Positions 7,684-48,712 of a stretch of DNA of 64,000 bases are shown here, one piece after another (the first letter of the stretch is position 1; every line of letters begins with the position of its first letter). The position numbers and the translations under genes were made by a program. The notes beneath the pieces are model-generated. The model searched no databases, had not been told where the DNA came from, and saw only the letters and a list, made by a program, of their open reading frames with translations. Origin of the DNA: a phage; sequence record QB031382.1; one strand, 5' to 3'.

Positions 7684-8727
7684 ATGACTAAACCAGTTAT
7701 CCCTCTTGATATTTGGGCCAATCAGGATGTTGTGCTTGAAAATACAGGAGAGTTGAACAAATCTCAACCGAACAAAGAAGAGAGATTGAAAGGTTGGGAT
7801 ATGACACAAAGGATAGCATGTGAAGTTGTTAACTTTGAACTCCACATGCTCTCTGCGTGGCTAAAGCATTTAACAGAAGATGTTGTCCCAGGATGGGATA
7901 ATAGATTCTTAAGGGTCACTAATAATCTGGCAGACGTTCCAGACAAAGCTGCTGCACGTCAAGTTCTCAATGTATACTCGCCTGAAGAAATGGATGACCT
8001 TTATGTTGACAAGGCTGGAGACACAATGATCCAGACTCAAACTTTAGGTCTTCAAAGAATCGAGTTTGCATCCGCGTCAACAGATAGTGCGGCGATATAC
8101 ACCACTATAACTCCAGACAAGACGATGATGGATTTCTGGATTATGGACAACATCGGTGGTGCTGACGGCACAGACCTTGATGATCCCTCTCACCAAATAG
8201 ACGGTTTCCGTTGGAGATTTCAACCTTCTGGTGGGCAGCCTGTGTTTTCGGCTATGAAGCTCAATGCTATAACTGCCAACCGTGCAAGACTGGCTATCCA
8301 AGGAAATCTTGAATGCAATGATGCAAAAAGCTCCTCTGCAAATGCTAATGCGGTAACGATACCTAGAGCCACTGTTAATGGACAACAATCCTGCGGCAGC
8401 GCTCAAATAGATGGAAGAGTAGATTGTAACGATAAAACCGCCAGGGGTCAATATGCAACAGTTGGTGGAAGAAACGTGGTCCGCAGGGTAAATGGTAGTA
8501 GCGCAGACAGTAGTGGTAACCTTACTATTCCTATGCCTAGTAGGGGTGTTGAAGATGTAAGGATAGCAAACCGTTTCAGAACCACCTACAGAGAATCAAG
8601 AGTATACCCTGGGCATGTAATGTGCTCCGGCAATTACGCCTATAAACACCCGTATCAGGGCGACTATTGGACTGGAGCTATTCAAAAATTTGTAAACGGT
8701 CAATGGATCACCATATCTTATGCTTAA
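7684..8727 (+). CDS. tail fibre protein, paralog 2
   Basis: 347 aa; N-terminal domain and C-terminal KFVNGQWITISYA paralogous to 5628-6668. Confidence 0.55.
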   Translation: MTKPVIPLDIWANQDVVLENTGELNKSQPNKEERLKGWDMTQRIACEVVNFELHMLSAWLKHLTEDVVPGWDNRFLRVTNNLADVPDKAAARQVLNVYSPEEMDDLYVDKAGDTMIQTQTLGLQRIEFASASTDSAAIYTTITPDKTMMDFWIMDNIGGADGTDLDDPSHQIDGFRWRFQPSGGQPVFSAMKLNAITANRARLAIQGNLECNDAKSSSANANAVTIPRATVNGQQSCGSAQIDGRVDCNDKTARGQYATVGGRNVVRRVNGSSADSSGNLTIPMPSRGVEDVRIANRFRTTYRESRVYPGHVMCSGNYAYKHPYQGDYWTGAIQKFVNGQWITISYA

Positions 8728-8736
8728 AGAGGGTAA

Positions 8737-9003
8737 ATGAAATTAACTCAGTTTTTATGGGGACTGGTTGCAGCATCTGATGACCCTACAAAAGTGTCCC
8801 AATCTAAGCTATGGTCAAACATAGGCATGGCAGTGATGACTGGGGTGTTTATTCATATGGGGTACAATGATACGCTTCCTGAATGGTATGCGTGGATATA
8901 CGCACCTTCAGTAGCCTGCCCCCAGCTTATTAGCAAATTCATCTCGCTCCGGTGGGGTTGCCAGCACCCTGACCACGTTAAAAACGAAGAGCAAAAAGCT
9001 TAA
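8737..9003 (+). CDS. hypothetical small hydrophobic protein
   Basis: 88 aa, RBS present, sits where a fibre chaperone would be but has no Tfa motif. Confidence 0.3.
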   Translation: MKLTQFLWGLVAASDDPTKVSQSKLWSNIGMAVMTGVFIHMGYNDTLPEWYAWIYAPSVACPQLISKFISLRWGCQHPDHVKNEEQKA

Positions 9004-9012
9004 GGAGAAATC

Positions 9013-10758
9013 ATGGCGCAAGACATGACAAGCTTCGAGCAGGCGGTAGATCAAGTAATTGTTGATTCTGAACGTTTGCACTTGATTGTCAACGGTAACG
9101 CTGTGGATGAAGTTGTCGTAGAGGATGGGACCACCATCCCTACGGTACGAAAAGCCATGCTTGACACCCTTTATTTTAAAACGCCACCAATCCCTTGGGC
9201 GTATGGTGCATCCACAACAGTTTTTAACCAGTTATATGAGTTTAAAGGGGACACAGGCCCTCAGTGGTGGTACGCTCCCGCAGCATCAAAATCTAACCCG
9301 GTTAGAATGCCAGCAGATCCTTCACAATCTCCGAACTGGAGATTATATACCGATTCTGCAGTAATGGCAAAATACTACGCAAAACTTAACAGCCCAAGAT
9401 TCGAAGGTGACCCGCGAGTACCTACACCTCCAATGGACGATAAGTCCGAGTCTATAGCAAACACAGAGTTTGTTGTGGACTATGTGGATAGCATATTTAA
9501 AGCCATGGAGGGGATGAAAGTTACTGTAGGGTCTTTGGTGGTAAAAGGTCTTACAGAACTTGCTAACACCATAGTTGGTGGCACCCTTACCTTACATGGG
9601 CCTGTTAATGGAGCGGATTCTACTGCACGCTTCAGGAACCTAATCCTTACTGCAAATACTTCTACACTGACTTTTGCGTGGAGCGATCCTAAGCATGCAG
9701 ACTGGAGAAGCACAGAGCTGCAACCTCATGAAGTAGCCACCCACAGAGTTATAGCTGACACTATAACTTCTGGGAAACCAGTGGCTAATAACAACGATGT
9801 GCATTTTGATGGTCTAGGTAATAACTTTTTTGACTACGTGTACATTCGTGGTAATGCCATGAAGGCAGCAACCGAACCGACATTGCAGGTCGATGGGACC
9901 ACCAGGGTTAAGAACCTTGAGGTGACAGGCACCGTTACAGGAATAACCTACTCTGTAGATGGCACCATGATCTACCCTAGCTATATTGAAAGCACAGGAG
10001 ATGCACTGATCAATGGAGATTTAGAGGTTGGCGGATCTATAGTCATTCGTGGCACAGCATCTGTCCAGAACATATCTTTAAATACTCTGAGGGTGAATGA
10101 GCGTGCCACTTTTGAAGGAGAAGGGCTTACAGCCAACAAAGGTGCAATTACCGAGCTGACAACCACTACTCTAACTGCAACAACTGCAAACTCTGAAAAC
10201 TGCAACGTTACCCGCAACTTGCAGGTAAATGGAGATGTTAGTTTAAACGCAGCAGGTACGGGAACCACTTATCTTCACAACCTTGGAATATCCGGCACGG
10301 TGACTGGGTGGCTGCCAGACTTCTCTAATGTTAACTTTGTCTGCAACGGCATTAACTCCAGTGGTAAGATAACCACCTCTCAAGAAATTGAGGCTGGTAA
10401 AACCATTACTGCCCCTACTTTCCACGCAGGAAAGGTAGATTTTGATTTAGAGGAGGTTGACGCATCTAGTGGGACATGGACACCTAACGGGCAGGCCAGC
10501 ATGTATGTTGTCCACGCGAAAGGGGATTTTACAATAGGCCAATGGCCTGGAACATCGGCTGAAGATAAACCTTACCCGTTTACTGCAATCATCTATGTCA
10601 TTCAAGATGCTGTAGGTCACAACGTGACTTTGCACGATAAGTATGCTATCCTGTCGGCAACACCTGTTATTAACAACAAGGCTAACAGTGTTACCTTGCT
10701 GCAATTAACGTATTGTGGTGTTGGTGATATCGTAGACGTAGTAATTGCACAACGTTAA
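9013..10758 (+). CDS. tail fibre / tailspike-like protein
   Basis: 581 aa, strong RBS AAGGAGA, Thr/Gly/Asn-rich repetitive beta-type sequence, in fibre block. Confidence 0.4.
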   Translation: MAQDMTSFEQAVDQVIVDSERLHLIVNGNAVDEVVVEDGTTIPTVRKAMLDTLYFKTPPIPWAYGASTTVFNQLYEFKGDTGPQWWYAPAASKSNPVRMPADPSQSPNWRLYTDSAVMAKYYAKLNSPRFEGDPRVPTPPMDDKSESIANTEFVVDYVDSIFKAMEGMKVTVGSLVVKGLTELANTIVGGTLTLHGPVNGADSTARFRNLILTANTSTLTFAWSDPKHADWRSTELQPHEVATHRVIADTITSGKPVANNNDVHFDGLGNNFFDYVYIRGNAMKAATEPTLQVDGTTRVKNLEVTGTVTGITYSVDGTMIYPSYIESTGDALINGDLEVGGSIVIRGTASVQNISLNTLRVNERATFEGEGLTANKGAITELTTTTLTATTANSENCNVTRNLQVNGDVSLNAAGTGTTYLHNLGISGTVTGWLPDFSNVNFVCNGINSSGKITTSQEIEAGKTITAPTFHAGKVDFDLEEVDASSGTWTPNGQASMYVVHAKGDFTIGQWPGTSAEDKPYPFTAIIYVIQDAVGHNVTLHDKYAILSATPVINNKANSVTLLQLTYCGVGDIVDVVIAQR

Positions 10759-31151: not shown

Positions 31152-32521
31152 TGGAAAAAGGGCAGTATGATGTAGGCACAGATGCTGCCCTCGTTGCAAT
31201 CATGAGCGGTGAGAATGTCTTCGTTTCAGGACCTGCAGGTTGTGGGAAGACGTATCTCATCAACATGATCCAGTCAATGTATGGAGACTCTTGCATAACG
31301 GTTGCCCCGACAGGGGTAGCCGCTTTAAACGTTAATGGAGCAACAGCACACCGAACCTTCGATCTTGCAGCAGGTGTGAGCATGGAGTCAGACTGGACCG
31401 CAATAAGGGCAAAAACAGCAAAGCCTTTGAAAAGCAAGGCATTTACCATCCTAATTATCGATGAAATCTCTATGATCCGTGCTGATAAGTTTATAGAGAT
31501 GGATAGGAAACTCCGCTTCCTTCGAAAAAATGACAAACCTTTCGGAGACATACAGGTCATATTGTTTGGCGATTTTTACCAGGCACCTCCTGTTGTCTCT
31601 TCTATGGAGAAGGAAGCCTACTTCAACTTCTACCATACGGACCTGTGTTGCTATACCGAATCTTGGAAAGAGCTTGACCTCCACAACATAGCCCTAGTAG
31701 ATCAGTTCCGACAGGAGTCTATTCGATTTGCCACAATGCTCAACTGTGTTCGTGAGGGTCGTCGCATAAAAGAGGTTGTAGCAGAACTTAATGCTCGCTG
31801 TTACAAAGGCGGTGTACCAACAGACGCTCTCACAATTTGCGCCACCAACAAACAAGCGGAGGAAGTGAACAGAAGGTTCTATGATGCCATCAACGCCCCA
31901 GAGAAGGTATACACTGGTGAAATGAAGGGTAAGTTTCCCTCCACCCTGCCAGTTGAGCAGGAGATGAAGTTGAAAATTGGCATGAAAGTTATGATAACCG
32001 CCAACGATGTTGACCCGACGCACAAGGTACCTTATTATGTTAACGGAACACGTGCCACAATTGTTAAATTTAAGAACAAGGCGGTGGTGGTAGAGCTTGA
32101 AGATGGAACACAGGTTGACATAGAGCAGAGGTTGTGGGAGAATAACGAGTATAAGCCATCTCAGAGATACAACATTGCAGAAAGGAAGATGGAGAAGTTT
32201 ATAGAGAGGGTAGTGATTGGGTCATACAAGCAACTTCCTCTGAAATCTGGGTACGCCGTAACATCTCATAAAAGTCAAGGGCTTACGCTAGATTGTTACA
32301 ACCTAGACCTTGGAAAGAACGGAGCTTTCTCTCCTGGGATGACGTATGTCGCTTTGAGTAGAGTTAAGACAATACAAGGAATAAACTTGTTGCGTCCACT
32401 AAGAGAAGTTGACATTATTGTTGACCCGCGAGTCGTAGAGTTTTACAATACAACATTCCCTGACTTAGACAAAATTGTCAGGAAAGATTTTGAAACCAGA
32501 GTAGAAGAGGGGGACGTATGA
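31151..32521 (+). CDS. SF1B DNA helicase (Dda / Pif1 / RecD-like)
   Basis: Walker A GPAGCGKT, Walker B IIDEISMI, C-terminal TSHKSQGLTLD. Confidence 0.75.
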   Translation: MEKGQYDVGTDAALVAIMSGENVFVSGPAGCGKTYLINMIQSMYGDSCITVAPTGVAALNVNGATAHRTFDLAAGVSMESDWTAIRAKTAKPLKSKAFTILIIDEISMIRADKFIEMDRKLRFLRKNDKPFGDIQVILFGDFYQAPPVVSSMEKEAYFNFYHTDLCCYTESWKELDLHNIALVDQFRQESIRFATMLNCVREGRRIKEVVAELNARCYKGGVPTDALTICATNKQAEEVNRRFYDAINAPEKVYTGEMKGKFPSTLPVEQEMKLKIGMKVMITANDVDPTHKVPYYVNGTRATIVKFKNKAVVVELEDGTQVDIEQRLWENNEYKPSQRYNIAERKMEKFIERVVIGSYKQLPLKSGYAVTSHKSQGLTLDCYNLDLGKNGAFSPGMTYVALSRVKTIQGINLLRPLREVDIIVDPRVVEFYNTTFPDLDKIVRKDFETRVEEGDV

Positions 32522-32859
32522 GTTTGTGGAGAAATATCGTTAACTACGTGTGTGGCAATCCGACTCCTGAAGAGAAGGTTGTTGTGATTCACGATTTTAC
32601 TAAAAGATCTCGTGAAAAAGATCTACTGCTAACAAAGGTGACTGATAAAGATCCTGCAGTAGGGGACTGGGCAGGTTTTGCGTTTACATCGGACAAATAC
32701 ACCTTTAACAAAGGTGACTACCTTGTTGTAGATTTTAACGAAGACATTGAGGGTGCTGAACCTTACTATCAAACCCTTATTGTTGCAGGGTGTGTTAATC
32801 TCTCTGCAGGCATGCACAGTTTGATTCTTTTTGAGCTTGACTCTGAAGACCTTGAGTAG
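32518..32859 (+). CDS. hypothetical protein
   Basis: 113 aa, start overlaps helicase stop. Confidence 0.4.
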   Translation: MSLWRNIVNYVCGNPTPEEKVVVIHDFTKRSREKDLLLTKVTDKDPAVGDWAGFAFTSDKYTFNKGDYLVVDFNEDIEGAEPYYQTLIVAGCVNLSAGMHSLILFELDSEDLE

Positions 32860-32920
32860 TAAGATGTGAGTATAAAGGGGAGGCACTCCTCCCCACAAAA
32901 ACTAAGGAGAGCACCAAACG

Positions 32921-34249
32921 ATGAGTAAAACCAAATTAGAACTTACCTGGGTAGGTAAAAACGAGCGCAAAAAGTTAGAGCCGCACATTTTGTTAGAAGA
33001 TTCTAGCAAATCTTACCACAGCCAGAAAGTGACCGAAAACGATATTTTTGATAATAAACTGATTTTTGGAGATAACTTATTAGCATTGAAGGCGCTAGAG
33101 CAAGAGTATGCAGGCAAAGTGAAGTGTGTTTACATAGACCCACCATTCAATACCGGGAGGGCTTTTGAGCACTACGATGATAGCCTGGAGCATTCCATTT
33201 GGCTGGGCTTAATGAGGGATAGGTTAGAAATAATTCGTAATCTTCTGAGTGATGATGGGGTAATATTCGTTCACTTAGATGGTTGCGAAATGGCGTATTT
33301 AAAAGTTTTGATGGACGAGATTTTTGGTCGTGCAAATCAGTTAAATACCATCTCGATGACCACAAATTCCCCTTCAGGATTTAAGGCAACAGGAGCCACA
33401 GTTTTCTCCACAGCAAACTTTTTGCTTGTATATGCAAAAGATCGCAACCAGAAACCGCTTAACAAAATCTATATACCTAAAGGGTATGATACAGGATATA
33501 ACAAATACCTATTAAACCCGGATGACCATTATAAAAATTGGACGTGGTGTGGTATTGCCGATGCGTTTGCAAAGGCCCATGGCTATAAAGATGCAAAAGA
33601 AGCCAAGAAAAAACTGCCTGACACATTCGATGATGAATTAGCACAATTCGCAATTGATAATGCAGAACGTGTATTTCAATCTGTTGCAATTGGTGGTGGT
33701 GCTAAAATAAAGAGAAAAGAAACTATCGAGAAGTCAAAGAAAGATAGGGATAAGGTTTATGTACATCCAAATGAGGATGTTGAAGGATTTTATATCGCAA
33801 ATGGTAGGCAAATGGTCTTTTACTCCAACAGGCTTTTGGAAATTGACGGTGAGATGCAGCCTGCGGAACTAATAACTGATGTTTGGACAGATATTAGTTG
33901 GAATGGAATAGCAAATGAAGGTGGCGTTAGTTTCAAAAATGGTAAAAAACCAGAAGCGCTTTTGAAGCGGATTTTCGAAATGTGTACGCGAGAAGGCGAT
34001 TTGGTATTGGATTCATTCGGTGGTTCGGGAACTACTGCTGCTGTAGCTCACAAAATGAAAAGACGTTGGATCTTGATCGAACTGGGTGATCATTGTCATA
34101 CCCATATTATTCCGCGCTTGGAAAAAGTGATCGATGGCGAAGATCAAGGTGGTATTTCTAAGTCTGTAAACTGGCAAGGTGGTGGTGGTGGCTTCCGTTA
34201 TTACAAACTTACCCCGGCCTTAATTGCGAAAGATATGTCTGATCAATAA
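32921..34249 (+). CDS. DNA methyltransferase, beta-class amino-MTase (N6-adenine or N4-cytosine)
   Basis: Motif IV DPPF (CVYIDPPFNTG) precedes motif I FGGSGTT (DSFGGSGTTAAVA); strong RBS AAGGAGA. Confidence 0.75.
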   Translation: MSKTKLELTWVGKNERKKLEPHILLEDSSKSYHSQKVTENDIFDNKLIFGDNLLALKALEQEYAGKVKCVYIDPPFNTGRAFEHYDDSLEHSIWLGLMRDRLEIIRNLLSDDGVIFVHLDGCEMAYLKVLMDEIFGRANQLNTISMTTNSPSGFKATGATVFSTANFLLVYAKDRNQKPLNKIYIPKGYDTGYNKYLLNPDDHYKNWTWCGIADAFAKAHGYKDAKEAKKKLPDTFDDELAQFAIDNAERVFQSVAIGGGAKIKRKETIEKSKKDRDKVYVHPNEDVEGFYIANGRQMVFYSNRLLEIDGEMQPAELITDVWTDISWNGIANEGGVSFKNGKKPEALLKRIFEMCTREGDLVLDSFGGSGTTAAVAHKMKRRWILIELGDHCHTHIIPRLEKVIDGEDQGGISKSVNWQGGGGGFRYYKLTPALIAKDMSDQ

Positions 34250-34262
34250 AGAGTACAATCAA

Positions 34263-34568
34263 ATGATGAAACGTTATAAACCATACACTTTTGAAATCGA
34301 TTTCGAACTTGACGATATGTTTACTGTAGAAGCTCAGGCAGTTGTCCAGTTGCCAGACCCGGAGTGCCGTGATTCTGATGTTGACTATTACGGATTTAGA
34401 CAAATTACCGATGTGCATGTTTACCACAACGGTGAAGAGGTGGACCTCCACCAACTGCCAAACGATTTGCGACACTCAATTTACAAACGTGCAGCCCGTG
34501 AACTAGAGTCCTATCTGGATGCAGCGACGACAGCAGCTGCATTTGCTGAAGAAGTGGGAGGTTTCTGA
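34263..34568 (+). CDS. hypothetical protein
   Basis: ORF-track frame from 34224; first ATG at 34263; start uncertain. Confidence 0.35.
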   Translation: MMKRYKPYTFEIDFELDDMFTVEAQAVVQLPDPECRDSDVDYYGFRQITDVHVYHNGEEVDLHQLPNDLRHSIYKRAARELESYLDAATTAAAFAEEVGGF

Positions 34569-34966
34569 TGATTACAGGTGTGAAGATTATCCAATACCAC
34601 TTAACTAAATTGGAAGATGCTGAAAAAGAGCTTGCAGAAGTTCTGAATAGCGGATATACTTTGCTATCATGCGCCTGCTCAGATACCTACGCTGTGTGGA
34701 CACTTATCCGGAAGGAAGAGCCTGCGGGGATCTTGGTGCCAAACCCTAAGATCATTAGTGAGGTGGATGACTATGCTCAGGACGGCCTGCCAGAAGGCTG
34801 GGAAGTATGGGAAGGTGGTGAAAACCCTGCACCAGGTAAGTGGGTAAAATACAAACTACGTAGCGGTGCACAGTACGCTGACTACTCTGATGACCTGGAT
34901 TGGAGTCATTCTTCACCAGGATCATCTGCAAGTTCATATGATATCATAGCTTTTCAGGAAGAATAA
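34568..34966 (+). CDS. hypothetical protein
   Basis: 132 aa. Confidence 0.4.
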   Translation: MITGVKIIQYHLTKLEDAEKELAEVLNSGYTLLSCACSDTYAVWTLIRKEEPAGILVPNPKIISEVDDYAQDGLPEGWEVWEGGENPAPGKWVKYKLRSGAQYADYSDDLDWSHSSPGSSASSYDIIAFQEE

Positions 34967-34978
34967 GGAGATAGTGTT

Positions 34979-35461
34979 ATGTCAGATTTTATGTGGAAAG
35001 TAGGTTACGCAGCTCCTGAAATGTGTGAGGCTTGCTTTGTGAAAATAGGCCGCGAGGATATCGACAAAGTGATCCTTAAGTTTCGTGATGTGGCTGTGAT
35101 CGGCAACCGAGTGCTTAAGCACTTAAAGAATTTGAAGCTCACTAAAAAGAAGTTCTTCGGACTTTTCGAAGAGAAAGTTGATGCTTGGACCCATTGCATC
35201 CAGGAAGCTAAATCTCACTACAGTGCTATCGTTACTCCAGAACGGGTAGCCAAGATGGAAGGATTCATCAACAGCACAGAATTTGAGTGTCTGAAAGCTG
35301 CACTCGATAGTTATCCGAAATGCCTCAAGCACTTGGACAAGTATGTAGAAAAGGATGGGGAAATGTATCTCACCCTGGACGCATACTATGAGATGCAAGA
35401 AATTTTAAATTTAGATTTGACATTGGTATCCACCGAGTATACAATAGGTATCCGGGTTTAA
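34979..35461 (+). CDS. hypothetical protein
   Basis: 160 aa, RBS AAGGAGA. Confidence 0.4.
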   Translation: MSDFMWKVGYAAPEMCEACFVKIGREDIDKVILKFRDVAVIGNRVLKHLKNLKLTKKKFFGLFEEKVDAWTHCIQEAKSHYSAIVTPERVAKMEGFINSTEFECLKAALDSYPKCLKHLDKYVEKDGEMYLTLDAYYEMQEILNLDLTLVSTEYTIGIRV

Positions 35462-35466
35462 CACTA

Positions 35467-35494
35467 GGCCCTGCCCGAAAGGGTGGGGCTTTTT
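35467..35494 (+). terminator. rho-independent terminator
   Basis: Stem CCCTGCCC-GAAA-GGGTGGGG (two G-U pairs) then CTTTTT; same element recurs at 45952. Confidence 0.55.
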
Positions 35495-35512
35495 GCATTA
35501 GGAGACAGCAAA

Positions 35513-36277
35513 TTGAAATTCATCTACAAAGAACACTACCACAAAGGTGTTGTGTGGAGTCTATTTGACGGGTCTGGTGGTGCAGTTATTGACTGGGCAA
35601 AAGCTGGGTACCTGTGCCTGTGCTTTAATGCAGAAGGTGCTGACCACGGCAGTTATGCAGAGGTGATAACCGATCATCCAAATATTCACTATGTGGATTA
35701 TTGGATTGACCCATGGTTCCCTCAAGAAACTTTTTGCATGTATCCAGCTCCAGACTTTATTCTTGCATTTCCTCCGTGCACGCATTTAGCGGTATCAGGA
35801 GCTGCACACTTTAAGAAAAAGCTGGCTAAGGACCCACTGATCCAGATTAACGCTGTAAAGGATGCTCGGGTTGCAGAAGAGTTGGGAGAGATTTACGATT
35901 GCCCGTGGCATGTAGAGAATCCTGTGGGTGTTATGTCCACGCTGTGGCGCAAACCTGATTACCGTTTTCACCCTTCTGATTATGGCGGGTATTTACCGGA
36001 GGATGATGTAAACCCCTGGTTTCCTGAATTTATAGCTCCACGTGATGCCTATCCAAAAATAACTTGCGGCTGGATAGGTAATGGATTTATAATCCCGGTC
36101 ACAAAACCTGTCCCGCAAATAGTTGACGCGGTTAGCGGGTATTCCATGCAACACGCCAAGCTGGGGGGAAAGAGTGCAAGAACAAAGATGATTCGAAGCC
36201 TCACACCCCGTGGCTGGGCAAAAGCTGTATTCTTAGCAAACGAGCCTGCAGTAAGGAGCAGAATTAATGGGAAGTAA
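35513..36277 (+). CDS. cytosine-C5 DNA methyltransferase-like protein
   Basis: Motif I LFDGSGG, motif IV-like FPPCT (PCQ variant), motif VI ENPVG, C-terminal RSLTPRGWAKA resembling motif X; start taken as TTG after RBS AGGAGA, uncertain. Confidence 0.5.
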   Translation: MKFIYKEHYHKGVVWSLFDGSGGAVIDWAKAGYLCLCFNAEGADHGSYAEVITDHPNIHYVDYWIDPWFPQETFCMYPAPDFILAFPPCTHLAVSGAAHFKKKLAKDPLIQINAVKDARVAEELGEIYDCPWHVENPVGVMSTLWRKPDYRFHPSDYGGYLPEDDVNPWFPEFIAPRDAYPKITCGWIGNGFIIPVTKPVPQIVDAVSGYSMQHAKLGGKSARTKMIRSLTPRGWAKAVFLANEPAVRSRINGK

Positions 36278-38345
36278 ATTTATGGCATCTGCATACAACC
36301 GTTTCGGTGAGCCAAACCCGAAAGCAACTAAGTATAAAAGTGGGGGAAGTGTGAAACGAGACTATCGTGATGAAAAAGAAGTTGAAACTGTAGAGACTGT
36401 TTTAGAAAATACCAAAATTGTCCCCGTCCCACAACAAAATATCGGTCTGATGGCTGCACAATATTTTGGTGTGCGATCAGCATTATCCCAAGAAGATGGT
36501 GTGACAGTCACTGCAACATATTTCCCATATTACGACCGCTACGGAAATCTGTCCGGTTTCAAAAAGCGTGACTGGACGATTCCTAAAGAGCAAAGAGGCC
36601 ATTTCTCCGTTGTTGGCATAGTAAAGGCTAACTCTCAGATGTTTGGTCAAAAGCTGTGTGCATCTTCCAACAACCGTAAGCAGATTAACGTTTGTGAGGG
36701 AGAAGGTGATGTTATTGCAGCATGGCAGGCTGCATATCAGATACAAGTAAAAGGGATTCTCACCAACGCTAAAGCCCCGGCAAAGGTGAAACAGTGGGCT
36801 AAAGAGGTCCAGGACGGGATCGATGCAGTTATCAACGGTGGCGATCTGGCAGGAAAACCATGCCTGCCTTTTGTTGGAATTAACTGTGGATGTGCAAACG
36901 CAGTAGATACTTTTGCAAACAATGAGAAGTTTATCCGTAGCTATGGAACAGTTGTGCTGGCAATGGATAACGATGCAGCTAACGAGGTAGAGAAGCAAAA
37001 ACACGTCATTAAAGGTGTTGAGGCCACGCACAATATCGCAGCATTTTTGATGGCTGATAACGTTTACCACGTGGAATATCCTGGCGAGGTAAACGACCCT
37101 GATGGTGTAAAAGATATCCGTGACATGCTGAAGGCTAAAAAGCTGGAAGATATTGTAAACATGTTCCGGCATCCTGTTAAGTATGTGCCGGATGCTGTGT
37201 CGGATTTAGAAGACTTCTCTATCGAATCTTTGCGGAAAAAGACTTCCAACGGGGTAGATATCAGCGCAGAGTTCCCAAAACTGCAAAAAATGCTGAAAGG
37301 CTTGCACAAAGGGACACTCGTAATGCTTACAGGGCCATCAGGGGGCGGTAAAACAACTGTAGCTAAAAAACTGGAACATTGTATTGCAAGATACTTGATG
37401 GACCCGACATGCCCGAAGGCCGATGACTATGAAGAGGATGATCGTCTATGCATGATCCATCTTGAGGAGGACCCAGAGGAAGCAATTAACTCCTTGTATG
37501 CAAACCAGTTAGGGTTTGATGTTAAAGAGTTTGTTGAAGATCCTAGCCAGTTTTTAACTGATCAAGAACACGCAGAGATTCACCAATCATGGGCAAAAGC
37601 TGGAAAAATCAAAGTGTTCAAACATTTCGGATCTATTCCGGTGGACGAGTTGATTACCAAGCTTAAGCAAATGGTTTGCCTGTACCATTGCCGTTATATT
37701 GTGCTGGATCACCTGTCCATGGTAATTTCAGGGCTTAATGTTAAGGATGAGCGAAAAGAGCTGGACATGGCTATGACCCAACTGGCTGCGTTTTGTAAGC
37801 AGTTTAACGTGTTTATCCTAGTGATCGCTCACCTCAAACGTACAGAGATTGTGCCTCCTAAGGACAAGGATGGTAACCCGTTACCTTTCTGGTATCCTGT
37901 GCGAAAAGAGAATTTGCGAGGATCGGCTGGGCTTGAACAGTTGAGTTGGGTAGTCATAGGTGTTGAGGCTGAAGAAATGGTAGATCGTTCTCGTGGTCGT
38001 GTCCGTTTAGTAGGTCTTAAAAACCGTCCAGCAAAAACATTGGGTATTGCGGATACTTTGGTTATGGACCCACATACAGGTAAGTTCCATGATGCCAGTA
38101 ATTGGTACTGGGACAAAGAAATGCAGATGTTTACAGACGGAGAAGGTGGGGAGGTTGTTTGGAGACCTCAGGCCATGTTTGAGGACCAAGAGCATGCAGT
38201 TGTAGAAACACCTATGGGCAAGGTTGTAGCTGATAAGGTTGTAACTCCTACTATTAAGCCTGTTGACACGCAGGAAGACCTCCAGTACGATGATCCATCT
38301 TCTGATCCGGTCCCCGGTTTTGAAGATGATGAAACACCTTTTTAA
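36267..38345 (+). CDS. primase-helicase (TOPRIM primase fused to DnaB/gp4-like helicase)
   Basis: TOPRIM acidic motifs VCEGEGD and LAMDNDAANE; helicase Walker A LTGPSGGGKTT. Confidence 0.7.
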   Translation: MGSKFMASAYNRFGEPNPKATKYKSGGSVKRDYRDEKEVETVETVLENTKIVPVPQQNIGLMAAQYFGVRSALSQEDGVTVTATYFPYYDRYGNLSGFKKRDWTIPKEQRGHFSVVGIVKANSQMFGQKLCASSNNRKQINVCEGEGDVIAAWQAAYQIQVKGILTNAKAPAKVKQWAKEVQDGIDAVINGGDLAGKPCLPFVGINCGCANAVDTFANNEKFIRSYGTVVLAMDNDAANEVEKQKHVIKGVEATHNIAAFLMADNVYHVEYPGEVNDPDGVKDIRDMLKAKKLEDIVNMFRHPVKYVPDAVSDLEDFSIESLRKKTSNGVDISAEFPKLQKMLKGLHKGTLVMLTGPSGGGKTTVAKKLEHCIARYLMDPTCPKADDYEEDDRLCMIHLEEDPEEAINSLYANQLGFDVKEFVEDPSQFLTDQEHAEIHQSWAKAGKIKVFKHFGSIPVDELITKLKQMVCLYHCRYIVLDHLSMVISGLNVKDERKELDMAMTQLAAFCKQFNVFILVIAHLKRTEIVPPKDKDGNPLPFWYPVRKENLRGSAGLEQLSWVVIGVEAEEMVDRSRGRVRLVGLKNRPAKTLGIADTLVMDPHTGKFHDASNWYWDKEMQMFTDGEGGEVVWRPQAMFEDQEHAVVETPMGKVVADKVVTPTIKPVDTQEDLQYDDPSSDPVPGFEDDETPF

Positions 38346-48160: not shown

Positions 48161-48352
48161 ATGGTAATTTTTAACCGGGATGGTATCATAGTTAGACAGC
48201 ACCCGTTCCTTGAATACTATCAAATTGAGCAATGGTGCTACGGGGATTGCAGTCACTCCTATGGGCAAAGTTGGGGATATCGCACAGTTTTTGAATCAAC
48301 AGACCTTGACAAAGTAAGACAGAAAGTTTTAGAACTTATTAACAACAAGTGA
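48161..48352 (+). CDS. hypothetical protein
   Basis: 63 aa. Confidence 0.4.
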   Translation: MVIFNRDGIIVRQHPFLEYYQIEQWCYGDCSHSYGQSWGYRTVFESTDLDKVRQKVLELINNK

Positions 48353-48359
48353 GTATGAT

Positions 48360-48692
48360 ATGGTAACATTAGAAAGACGTAAAGCTATTGCCGCTACACT
48401 GGCAGACATCTTTTGGGATTGTAATTTAAAAGATACCCGATATTGCGGCGCATCTGTAGATGTATTATTCCCACGGCCCACCATTGTTGCAATGGGCAGT
48501 CTACTGGGCGTAGTTGCAGGTGCATGGGATAAGGAAGGCGGTTTTTATATCTGGCAACCTGACTACGGTACCTGGAAAGAAGTAAGGGGTGCTGATGACT
48601 TTGGGCCTGCAGTTGCTAAGATGGATGGCTGGGAAATTTATGTTGGAAACGACATGAAGCTGAAAGGCGAGATTGTTTACTGGTTACCTTAA
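48360..48692 (+). CDS. hypothetical protein
   Basis: 110 aa. Confidence 0.4.
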   Translation: MVTLERRKAIAATLADIFWDCNLKDTRYCGASVDVLFPRPTIVAMGSLLGVVAGAWDKEGGFYIWQPDYGTWKEVRGADDFGPAVAKMDGWEIYVGNDMKLKGEIVYWLP

Positions 48693-48712
48693 GAAAGTGC
48701 AGGAGATAAAGT

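Follow-up and report, generated by a model that had tools for sequence, protein, structure and literature searches.

Two orphan DNA methyltransferase genes in the replication module of an rV5-like Escherichia coli phage

The 64,000-nucleotide stretch of phage DNA in record QB031382.1 (hereafter the window) carries, between positions 32921 and 36277, two genes for DNA methyltransferases of different classes, termed here methyltransferase 1 (gene 1) and methyltransferase 2 (gene 2). The window is part of the genome of a Vequintavirus (rV5-like) phage of E. coli: the 4-kb locus is 99.9% identical to PQ014731 (Escherichia phage VB-EcoM-WM), its identity to rV5 and numerous further Vequintavirus genomes is 96-98%, and at least 80% of the 4-kb query is covered in 86 phage records. 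Gene order in the BASEL phages runs from rIIA and rIIB through a DNA helicase, a small open reading frame (ORF), a 'putative N6 adenine methyltransferase', three hypothetical proteins and a 'Dcm-like C5 cytosine methyltransferase' to the primase/helicase and DNA polymerase. Both methyltransferase genes belong to the replication module, in a phage group that has been well sequenced, and dozens of relatives already have them annotated as methyltransferases in GenBank. The finding is in this sense already known, and only two points are modestly new, namely a clear footprint of capture and truncation in gene 1 and the link between gene 2 and an experimentally active family.

Orphan methyltransferases are a textbook feature of phages. 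The reality of the two genes discussed here is a gene-content observation backed by conservation and is not a statistical claim; purifying selection is strong, with ratios of nonsynonymous to synonymous substitution (dN/dS) of 0.05-0.12 for gene 1 and 0.02-0.03 for gene 2. The original prediction, made from the letters of the window, had described a 442-residue beta-class amino-methyltransferase with DPPF ahead of FGGSGTT, then three small genes and a short protein resembling C5-cytosine methyltransferases, and translation and the ORF list bear out this description. The motifs quoted for gene 2 (LFDGSGG, FPPCT, ENPVG and RSLTPRGWAKA) are all found in its translation, and both class assignments proved right (gene 1, beta-class amino-methyltransferase, PF01555; gene 2, C5-cytosine methyltransferase fold). 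The count of two holds for the locus but not for the phage, since a complete genome of this type carries four methyltransferase genes, two of them outside the window (Table 1).

Table 1. Features of the locus and the two further methyltransferase genes. Coordinates are window positions unless a record is named; counts out of 117 refer to 116 unselected representatives of the gene 2 family plus the query.
Feature	Coordinates	Strand	Basis
DNA segment shared with chromosomal E. coli Type III mod gene	32909..34258	+	blastn
Methyltransferase 1, 442-residue orphan, Type III Mod-like, probable N6-adenine (beta-class) enzyme without C-terminal domain	32921..34249	+	PF01555, PADLOC, Foldseek, dN/dS
Motif IV DPPF (catalytic), residues 73-76	33137..33148	+	translation; D73, P74 and P75 invariant in 26 homologues
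Motif I FGGSGTT (binding of S-adenosylmethionine, AdoMet), residues 366-372	34016..34036	+	translation; F366, G368, S369, G370, T371 and T372 invariant in 26 homologues
3' junction, 11-nt deletion relative to the bacterial gene, giving frameshift and stop; homology ends	34230..34258	+	DNA alignment
Small ORF, 100-101 residues	34263 or 34266..34568	+	phrog_4240, E 8e-33; hypothetical in relatives
Small ORF, 132 residues	34568..34966	+	phrog_11995, E 4e-90; no Pfam match
Small ORF, 160 residues	34979..35461	+	phrog_12900, E 7e-113; no Pfam match
Sigma-70-like promoter, TTGACA-17-TACAAT	35417..35445	+	11/12 consensus matches; consensus match only
Hairpin, 11-bp stem with 7 G-C pairs, then T-run	35466..35491	+	terminator-like scan and sequence; just 5' of the gene 2 ribosome-binding site
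Methyltransferase 2, 254-residue minimal C5-cytosine ('Dcm-like') enzyme, TTG start	35513..36277	+	
Motif I LFDGSGG	35561..35581	+	translation; aligns to motif I of DNMT3B and M.HaeIII
Motif IV FPPCT, catalytic Cys89	35768..35782	+	translation; Cys in 109/117, Thr next in 101/117
Motif VI ENPVG (ENV equivalent)	35915..35929	+	E135 in 114/117, N136 in 108/117, P137 in 115/117
RSLTPRGWAKA, conserved C-terminal motif (putative motif IX/X equivalent)	36194..36226	+	Arg228 in 108/117
11-nt overlap of gene 2 stop with primase/helicase start (36267-38345)	36267..36277	+	ORF coordinates
Third methyltransferase, 177 residues, NPPY, outside the window	PQ014731 87702-88235 (L004 37702-38235)		first 90 residues identical to bas51_0176
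Fourth methyltransferase, 272 residues, gamma-class (EPSAG and GSF, then GNPPFG)	PQ014731 103292-104107 (L005 3292-4107)	-	

Gene 1 and its bacterial Type III relatives

Gene 1 matches the Pfam family PF01555 (E value of 9e-42; 143.9 bits against a cut-off of 26.7) and has the motif order of the beta class, with motif IV ahead of motif I and the recognition region in between. A DPPF motif, in place of SPPF, favours methylation of adenine N6 over cytosine N4. The PADLOC model MTase_III (PDLC03636) is matched with an E value of 1.4e-201 over profile positions 2-443 of 575. The best Foldseek matches are all Type III Mods [EcoP15I Mod (4zcf; E value of 9e-20), 6k0w and 7dsu], and sequence and fold searches of the PDB place EcoP15I Mod, a Helicobacter Mod and Mbo45V Mod at the top. 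The AlphaFold2 model has a mean predicted local distance difference test score of 80.4, with most of residues 100-430 confident except for the 150-163 loop. EcoP15I Mod (PDB code 4ZCF; PADLOC MTase_III), the best match in both sequence and fold, shares with the gene 1 product the beta-class motif order, the DPPF and FxGxG motifs, the N-terminal domain and the central target-recognition insert. The differences lie in length and in company. Type III Mods have 567-644 residues and a C-terminal domain that contacts Res, whereas the phage protein has 442 residues and lacks that domain; a Type III mod gene has its partner res alongside, whereas gene 1 has no adjacent res. The annotation of the 139-kb sister genome (PQ014731) includes no Res, and the neighbours of gene 1 are a Pif1/Dda-like helicase gene and small ORFs.

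A search of a large database gave homologues that are 60-76% identical to the query along its full length and come from Acinetobacter, Thermomonas, Pseudomonas, Aeribacillus and other genera; the bacterial proteins are nearly all 570-600 residues long and are spread over many phyla. An E. coli protein of 567 residues (P0273) shares 95% identity with the phage protein, which is shorter by 125 residues. Across the entire phage gene, chromosomal E. coli mod genes of this kind (e.g. in SMN152SH1 and 2014C-3011) are 95% identical in protein and 93-94% in DNA, but they are full length and are followed by a gene for a 912-residue Type III Res, in contrast to the truncated phage copy. In the blastn alignment, the shared segment of the window corresponds to positions 7987-9349 of the E. 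coli locus L017 with 93.3% identity over 1366 columns; the homology begins about 12 nt ahead of the ATG and ends about 10 nt past the phage stop codon. The G+C content of this segment (0.400, against 0.438 for the window) is the lowest in the neighbourhood, and at its 3' junction INKEYN, a remnant of the bacterial Mod sequence, can be read in another frame.

In both E. coli and Acinetobacter, the mod gene lies directly upstream of a gene for a 912-933-residue ResIII protein (PADLOC REase_III; E value of 9e-191) and is preceded by a DrmD-like SNF2 helicase gene and variable cargo (L017 2106-12464; L021 3366-12571). The cargo slot holds AbiD and AbiU/AIPR in E. coli and an AAA_21 ATPase and DUF4276 in Acinetobacter, and the E. 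coli array (SNF2 helicase, cargo, Mod, Res) adjoins AlpA-type integrative-element genes. ARMADA II was considered as the home system of the bacterial homologue and was rejected because its components differ. A short 442-residue bacterial homologue (P0320) was likewise rejected as a phage gene, its locus being a decayed bacterial one. The chromosomal mod gene, at 94% identity, was found in 25 of 5426 complete E. coli genomes, the carriers being some cattle, poultry and human strains. Judged by its sequence, gene 1 was copied from a Type III restriction-modification (RM) system of enterobacteria, of which it represents the Mod subunit. Full-length versions linked to Res occur in many phyla, which makes transfer from bacterium to phage the simplest direction.

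The EcoP15I structure indicates what the truncation would leave. Each Mod has an N-terminal domain, a methyltransferase domain into which a target-recognition domain is inserted and, at residues 539-644, a C-terminal domain. The N-terminal and methyltransferase domains hold the Mod-Mod dimer together, Res is contacted extensively by the C-terminal domain of one Mod, and Mod2 by itself works as a methyltransferase (PMC4490356). Gene 1 keeps the N-terminal domain, the methyltransferase core with DPPF and FGGSGTT, and the target-recognition region, and has lost the last ~125 residues because of the 11-nt deletion at the edge of the acquired DNA. Because the missing domain is the one that contacts Res in EcoP15I, the gene 1 product should still dimerise and methylate. 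Its expected action is N6-methylation of adenine where the cognate Type III enzyme recognises DNA, without assembly with Res. Asymmetric sites methylated on one strand are the norm for Type III Mods (PMC4490356), and the target of gene 1 is probably a short asymmetric sequence. Gene 1 thus seems best read as a Res-independent Mod that methylates the site of its parent Type III system.

It might be supposed that the frameshifting deletion, in removing ~125 C-terminal residues, disabled methyltransferase 1 and left an inactive relic of horizontal transfer. We regard this as very unlikely. The low dN/dS of gene 1 holds both among the phage copies and between the phage and E. coli genes, and selection therefore maintains the truncated gene; about 88 phage records retain it with an identity of at least 90%. 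Every catalytic and AdoMet motif is intact, and the domain that was lost contacts Res and lies outside the catalytic core and the dimer interface in EcoP15I. A further possibility follows from the domains themselves: as the dimerising domains of Mod are kept and the Res-docking domain is gone, the gene 1 product could form mixed dimers with the 95%-identical Mod of a host and poison the assembly of Mod2Res. This would amount to an anti-restriction protein with dominant-negative action, derived from the host's own Type III Mod by capture and truncation, and we consider it an improbable function.

Gene 2 and its family

The TTG at 35513 is the start annotated in relatives and lies 8 nt downstream of AGGAG (35500-35504), which upholds the start codon of the original prediction and gives a protein of 254 residues. 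The longest mechanical ORF would begin at GTG 35483, a codon inside the hairpin. In PQ014731 the gene is annotated from an internal start (48161-48700, approximately window 35754-36293) as a protein of 179 residues that is missing motif I as well as the beginning of the segment with motif IV, while the BASEL records use the TTG and 254 residues.

The gene 2 protein gave no significant match in Pfam, NCBIfam, PADLOC or PDB sequence searches, PF00145 not appearing even at an E value of 10; its only profile match was PHROG 757. A profile built from 24 sequences of the family reached an E value of only 0.12 against the PDB (DNMT3B and M.HaeIII). PF00145 was matched by 16 of the 24 relatives, over motifs I-IV only, three of them above threshold (24.7-28.5 bits; cut-off of 22), and hhalign aligned the family with that of CmoX with an E value of 4e-5 over motifs I, IV and VI. 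The predicted fold of the catalytic domain is that of a C5-cytosine methyltransferase, with DNMT3A/B as the best structural matches and CmoX second. Mammalian DNMT3A and DNMT3B are 12-15% identical to the phage protein and superpose on ~190 of its 254 residues; gene 2 has none of their regulatory domains.

The C-terminal half is harder to place. No QxRxR (motif VIII) or GN (motif X) is recognisable, and alignments of this half are not significant. Arg228 stands where canonical enzymes have the GN of motif X, but the alternative hhalign alignment behind the IX/X placement of RSLTPRGWAKA is not significant, and in comparisons with Dcm, CmoX and DNMT3 neither motif IX nor motif X was favoured. 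The conserved segments PRDAYPK and TK.IRSLTPRG may substitute for motifs VIII-X. Only ~45 residues separate the last core strand from the C-terminal helix.

Relatives number 3,546 in a 90%-clustered database and 2,017 as representatives at 50% identity, nearly all of them 210-260 residues long. By tblastn, the family occurs in 1,504 of 50,697 phage records. Phages of Escherichia, Klebsiella and Salmonella make up most of these, T1-like and Dhillonvirus siphoviruses among them; lambdoid prophages also carry it, beside Dam and NinG. This phage family, to which gene 2 belongs, is very large and consists of minimal C5-cytosine methyltransferases; the core is DNMT3-like and the target-recognition domain is all but absent. 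A distant member (P0265; 348 residues) has a C-terminal extension resembling an HNH nuclease, which hints that some members of the family may belong to restriction-like modules. E. coli Dcm belongs to the same reaction class, but was rejected as an orthologue: hhalign gave an E value of 0.18 over 27 columns, Dcm has 472 residues with a full target-recognition domain and the canonical PCQ, QxRxR and GN, which set it apart from the 254-residue phage protein, and there is no pairing with Vsr, no vsr-like neighbour being present at the gene 2 locus.

The chemistry of gene 2 can be approached through an enzyme that has been studied. Over its full length, gene 2 is 54% identical (E value of 3e-86) to bas06_0055 of KarlJaspers (Bas06), the genome of which is 95.4% identical to that of phage K42; the 711-bp 'Dcm-like C5 cytosine methyltransferase' gene of K42 is the trigger of retron Ec86 (preprint, bioRxiv 10.1101/2023.08.16.553469). 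Mass spectrometry coupled to liquid chromatography (LC-MS) in that study showed that the K42 enzyme raises 5-methylcytosine in retron DNA whereas a C82A/E128A/K175A/K176A mutant does not, and its authors propose CCWGG, the site of E. coli Dcm, as the target (bioRxiv 10.1101/2023.08.16.553469). Residues C82, E128 and K175 of KarlJaspers/K42 correspond to C89, E135 and K182 of gene 2, and the two proteins are alike in family, small size and catalytic positions. Gene 2 differs in having Ile at the position of K176, an N-terminus longer by 18 residues and Asn rather than Asp at motif II, and it comes from another genomic position in another phage family (K42 and KarlJaspers being Drexlerviridae). 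By analogy with the K42 enzyme, methyltransferase 2 would make ordinary 5-methylcytosine through the conserved Cys/Glu and AdoMet chemistry.

The PCT variant and the TTG start had been put forward as reasons to look for non-canonical chemistry, a suggestion that the evidence does not support. Thr follows the catalytic Cys as a family signature, not as a peculiarity of this phage; Gln is also absent after the Cys in DNMT3B (PCN); the K42 orthologue gives 5-methylcytosine; and TTG is simply the start annotated in relatives. Such chemistry, for example the transfer of a carboxymethyl group from host carboxy-S-adenosylmethionine as in phage CmoX, is in our view extremely unlikely here. A natural DNA C5-carboxymethyltransferase does exist, CmoX, with a signature of SPPC and an Arg350 that replaces the Asn of motif X (PMC12783734). 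The required cofactor is made by E. coli, CmoX is the second-best structural match, and gene 2 has PPC, lacks the 'GN' and has its conserved Arg228 near the place of Arg350. However, the sequence in gene 2 is FPPC and not SPPC, and Arg228 falls within one residue of CmoX Arg350 only in an alignment without statistical support. DNMT3A/B are the better structural match and carry an Arg at the motif X position, yet are ordinary methyltransferases. The LC-MS result for the K42 orthologue of the 54%-identical KarlJaspers protein points the same way, as does the genomic setting. SpCmoX (Synechococcus phage S-B43; PDB code 8YF3) has 372 residues, matches PF00145 and is encoded beside CmoA and an amide ligase, whereas neither partner was seen near gene 2 in the window or in two other loci of the gene 2 family. 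A tblastn search with E. coli CmoA gave 83 phage matches, with Escherichia absent among the organism groups listed (three small groups and 43 records being unlisted).

Methylation and protection

Bas51 (WalterGehring; MZ501111) carries orthologues of both window genes, that of gene 1 being bas51_0070, together with two further methyltransferase genes. The mutations made in its 'N6 adenine methyltransferase', which methylates GATC and triggers the retrons Asa1 and Squ1, were at D69, D79 and T83 (PMC12548924). Gene 1 was considered as this enzyme and rejected, as D69, D79 and T83 fit the 177-residue NPPY enzyme bas51_0176 instead. A 'putative glycosidase', also implicated in the retron study (PMC12548924), lies ~1.2 kb from the gene for the 177-residue enzyme. 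The fourth enzyme (bas51_0200 in Bas51) matches PADLOC models of Type II methyltransferases (PDLC03255; E value of 6e-34); its gene is intact in PQ014731, yet is annotated there as a 136-residue fragment, its 5' half being overlain by a spurious ORF on the opposite strand.

The source data of the retron study list 1405 GATC, 509 GTAC and 576 other methylated adenines for wild-type Bas51 and 35 GATC, 511 GTAC and 349 other for the T83P mutant (PMC12548924). The sister genome contains 708 GATC and 265 GTAC sites. As the Bas51 counts are about twice these numbers, GATC and GTAC are essentially fully methylated on both strands, and the GTAC methylation of Bas51 is independent of the GATC enzyme. 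GTAC is rare in PQ014731, with 265 sites observed against 445 expected from a Markov model (observed/expected ratio of 0.60; 0.59 for CTAG), and is thus markedly under-represented although fully methylated in the relative Bas51.

That methyltransferase 1 makes the GTAC methylation is a possibility to which we give limited credence. The 509-511 methylated GTAC adenines persist without the GATC enzyme and agree with ~265 sites on two strands, Bas51 carries the gene 1 orthologue, and E. coli K-12 is not known to have a GTAC methylase. Against this, the 272-residue Type II-like gamma-class enzyme fits a 4-bp palindrome better, the 349 'other' sites could instead hold the motif of methyltransferase 1, and the caller of N6-methyladenine might be misled by a modified neighbouring C. 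Because Type III Mods normally read asymmetric sites on one strand (PMC4490356), it seems more likely that GTAC belongs to the Type II-like enzyme and that the 'other' sites conceal the motif of gene 1. In Bas51 the adenine methylation left at GTAC and 'other' sites, being already measured, offers a cheap route to the assignment of target sites.

The reading that we favour, with moderate confidence, is that two orphan DNA methyltransferases encoded in the replication block methylate new phage DNA and so confer narrow, site-specific protection. Both enzymes would act on newly made phage DNA, and the methylation made by gene 1 would pre-protect replicating DNA against the cognate Type III system, its protection probably being aimed at that one uncommon system. 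The outcome would be resistance at particular sites and not a general resistance to restriction. The Vequintavirinae have been described as 'exceptionally susceptible' to the RM systems tested, and among other phages there is no simple link between methyltransferase genes and resistance (Maffei et al., PMC8594841). It is because of this exceptional susceptibility that the protection given by these enzymes is taken to be site-specific and narrow. The 'multi-layered protection' of the original prediction is accordingly plausible in kind, a captured Type III Mod being present, but overstated in degree for phages so sensitive to RM systems.

Several points weigh against this reading. Any protection must be narrow or weak given the RM susceptibility of the Vequintavirinae, and the Type III system cognate to gene 1 is rare, being present in 25 of the 5426 complete E. 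coli genomes. Methyltransferase 1 could have lost some or all of its activity with the truncation, and the residual GTAC methylation of Bas51 may stem from bas51_0200 and not from methyltransferase 1. For methyltransferase 2, the CCWGG specificity proposed for K42 rests on mutated retron DNA, an indirect approach and not direct mapping, and an identity of 54% does not fix the specificity of gene 2. No restriction-digest or methylome data on rV5 itself were found in the literature.

An alternative is that the methyltransferases serve phage physiology, by marking replicated DNA, timing expression or packaging, or avoiding the mismatch or very-short-patch repair of the host. Both genes lie in the replication module, gene 2 overlaps the start of the primase/helicase gene, and the phages stay highly sensitive to RM systems in the laboratory, all of which would suit such a role; the strong purifying selection shows that there is a function but not which. 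On the other hand, gene 1 was copied recently from the Mod of a restriction system, the simplest implication being that it shares the target site of that system, and the literature consulted documents no regulatory role for either family. A physiological role is on balance unlikely, and site-specific protection remains our preferred interpretation.

This interpretation has some practical bearing. The use of rV5-like phages as typing or therapy agents has four methyltransferase genes to reckon with, and one of them, which copies a Type III Mod almost exactly but is blind to Res, may widen the host range on just those strains that carry the Mod. Methyltransferases of these kinds also cut both ways: retron defence systems sense related enzymes, so that those described here would carry a cost (PMC12548924; bioRxiv 10.1101/2023.08.16.553469).

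Small ORFs and signals between the genes

The three small ORFs between the two genes (34263-35461) and another at 32518-32859 belong to PHROGs without assigned function, and the first of the three, at 34263-34568, has no Pfam or NCBIfam match. Weak similarities of the small ORFs to 'DNA methyltransferase' PHROGs (phrog_1573 and phrog_2060) and 'DNA ligase' PHROGs (phrog_10384 and phrog_10936) are probably annotation noise. The 11-nt overlap at the 3' end of gene 2 suggests that it is co-expressed with the replication module. Upstream of gene 2, the candidate promoter has the strong hairpin within 20 nt downstream of it. This hairpin could terminate transcription of the genes before it or form the 5' stem-loop of a transcript limited to the methylase and primase genes; a promoter and a terminator are annotated within the matched 4-kb locus in the rV5 and Gotham records. 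Finally, 16 GenBank records with MG0656xx accessions bear the name 'Campylobacter phage', with C. jejuni as host and no annotation where listed; they are ~97% identical to window 32500-36500 and look like mislabelled or contaminant genomes.

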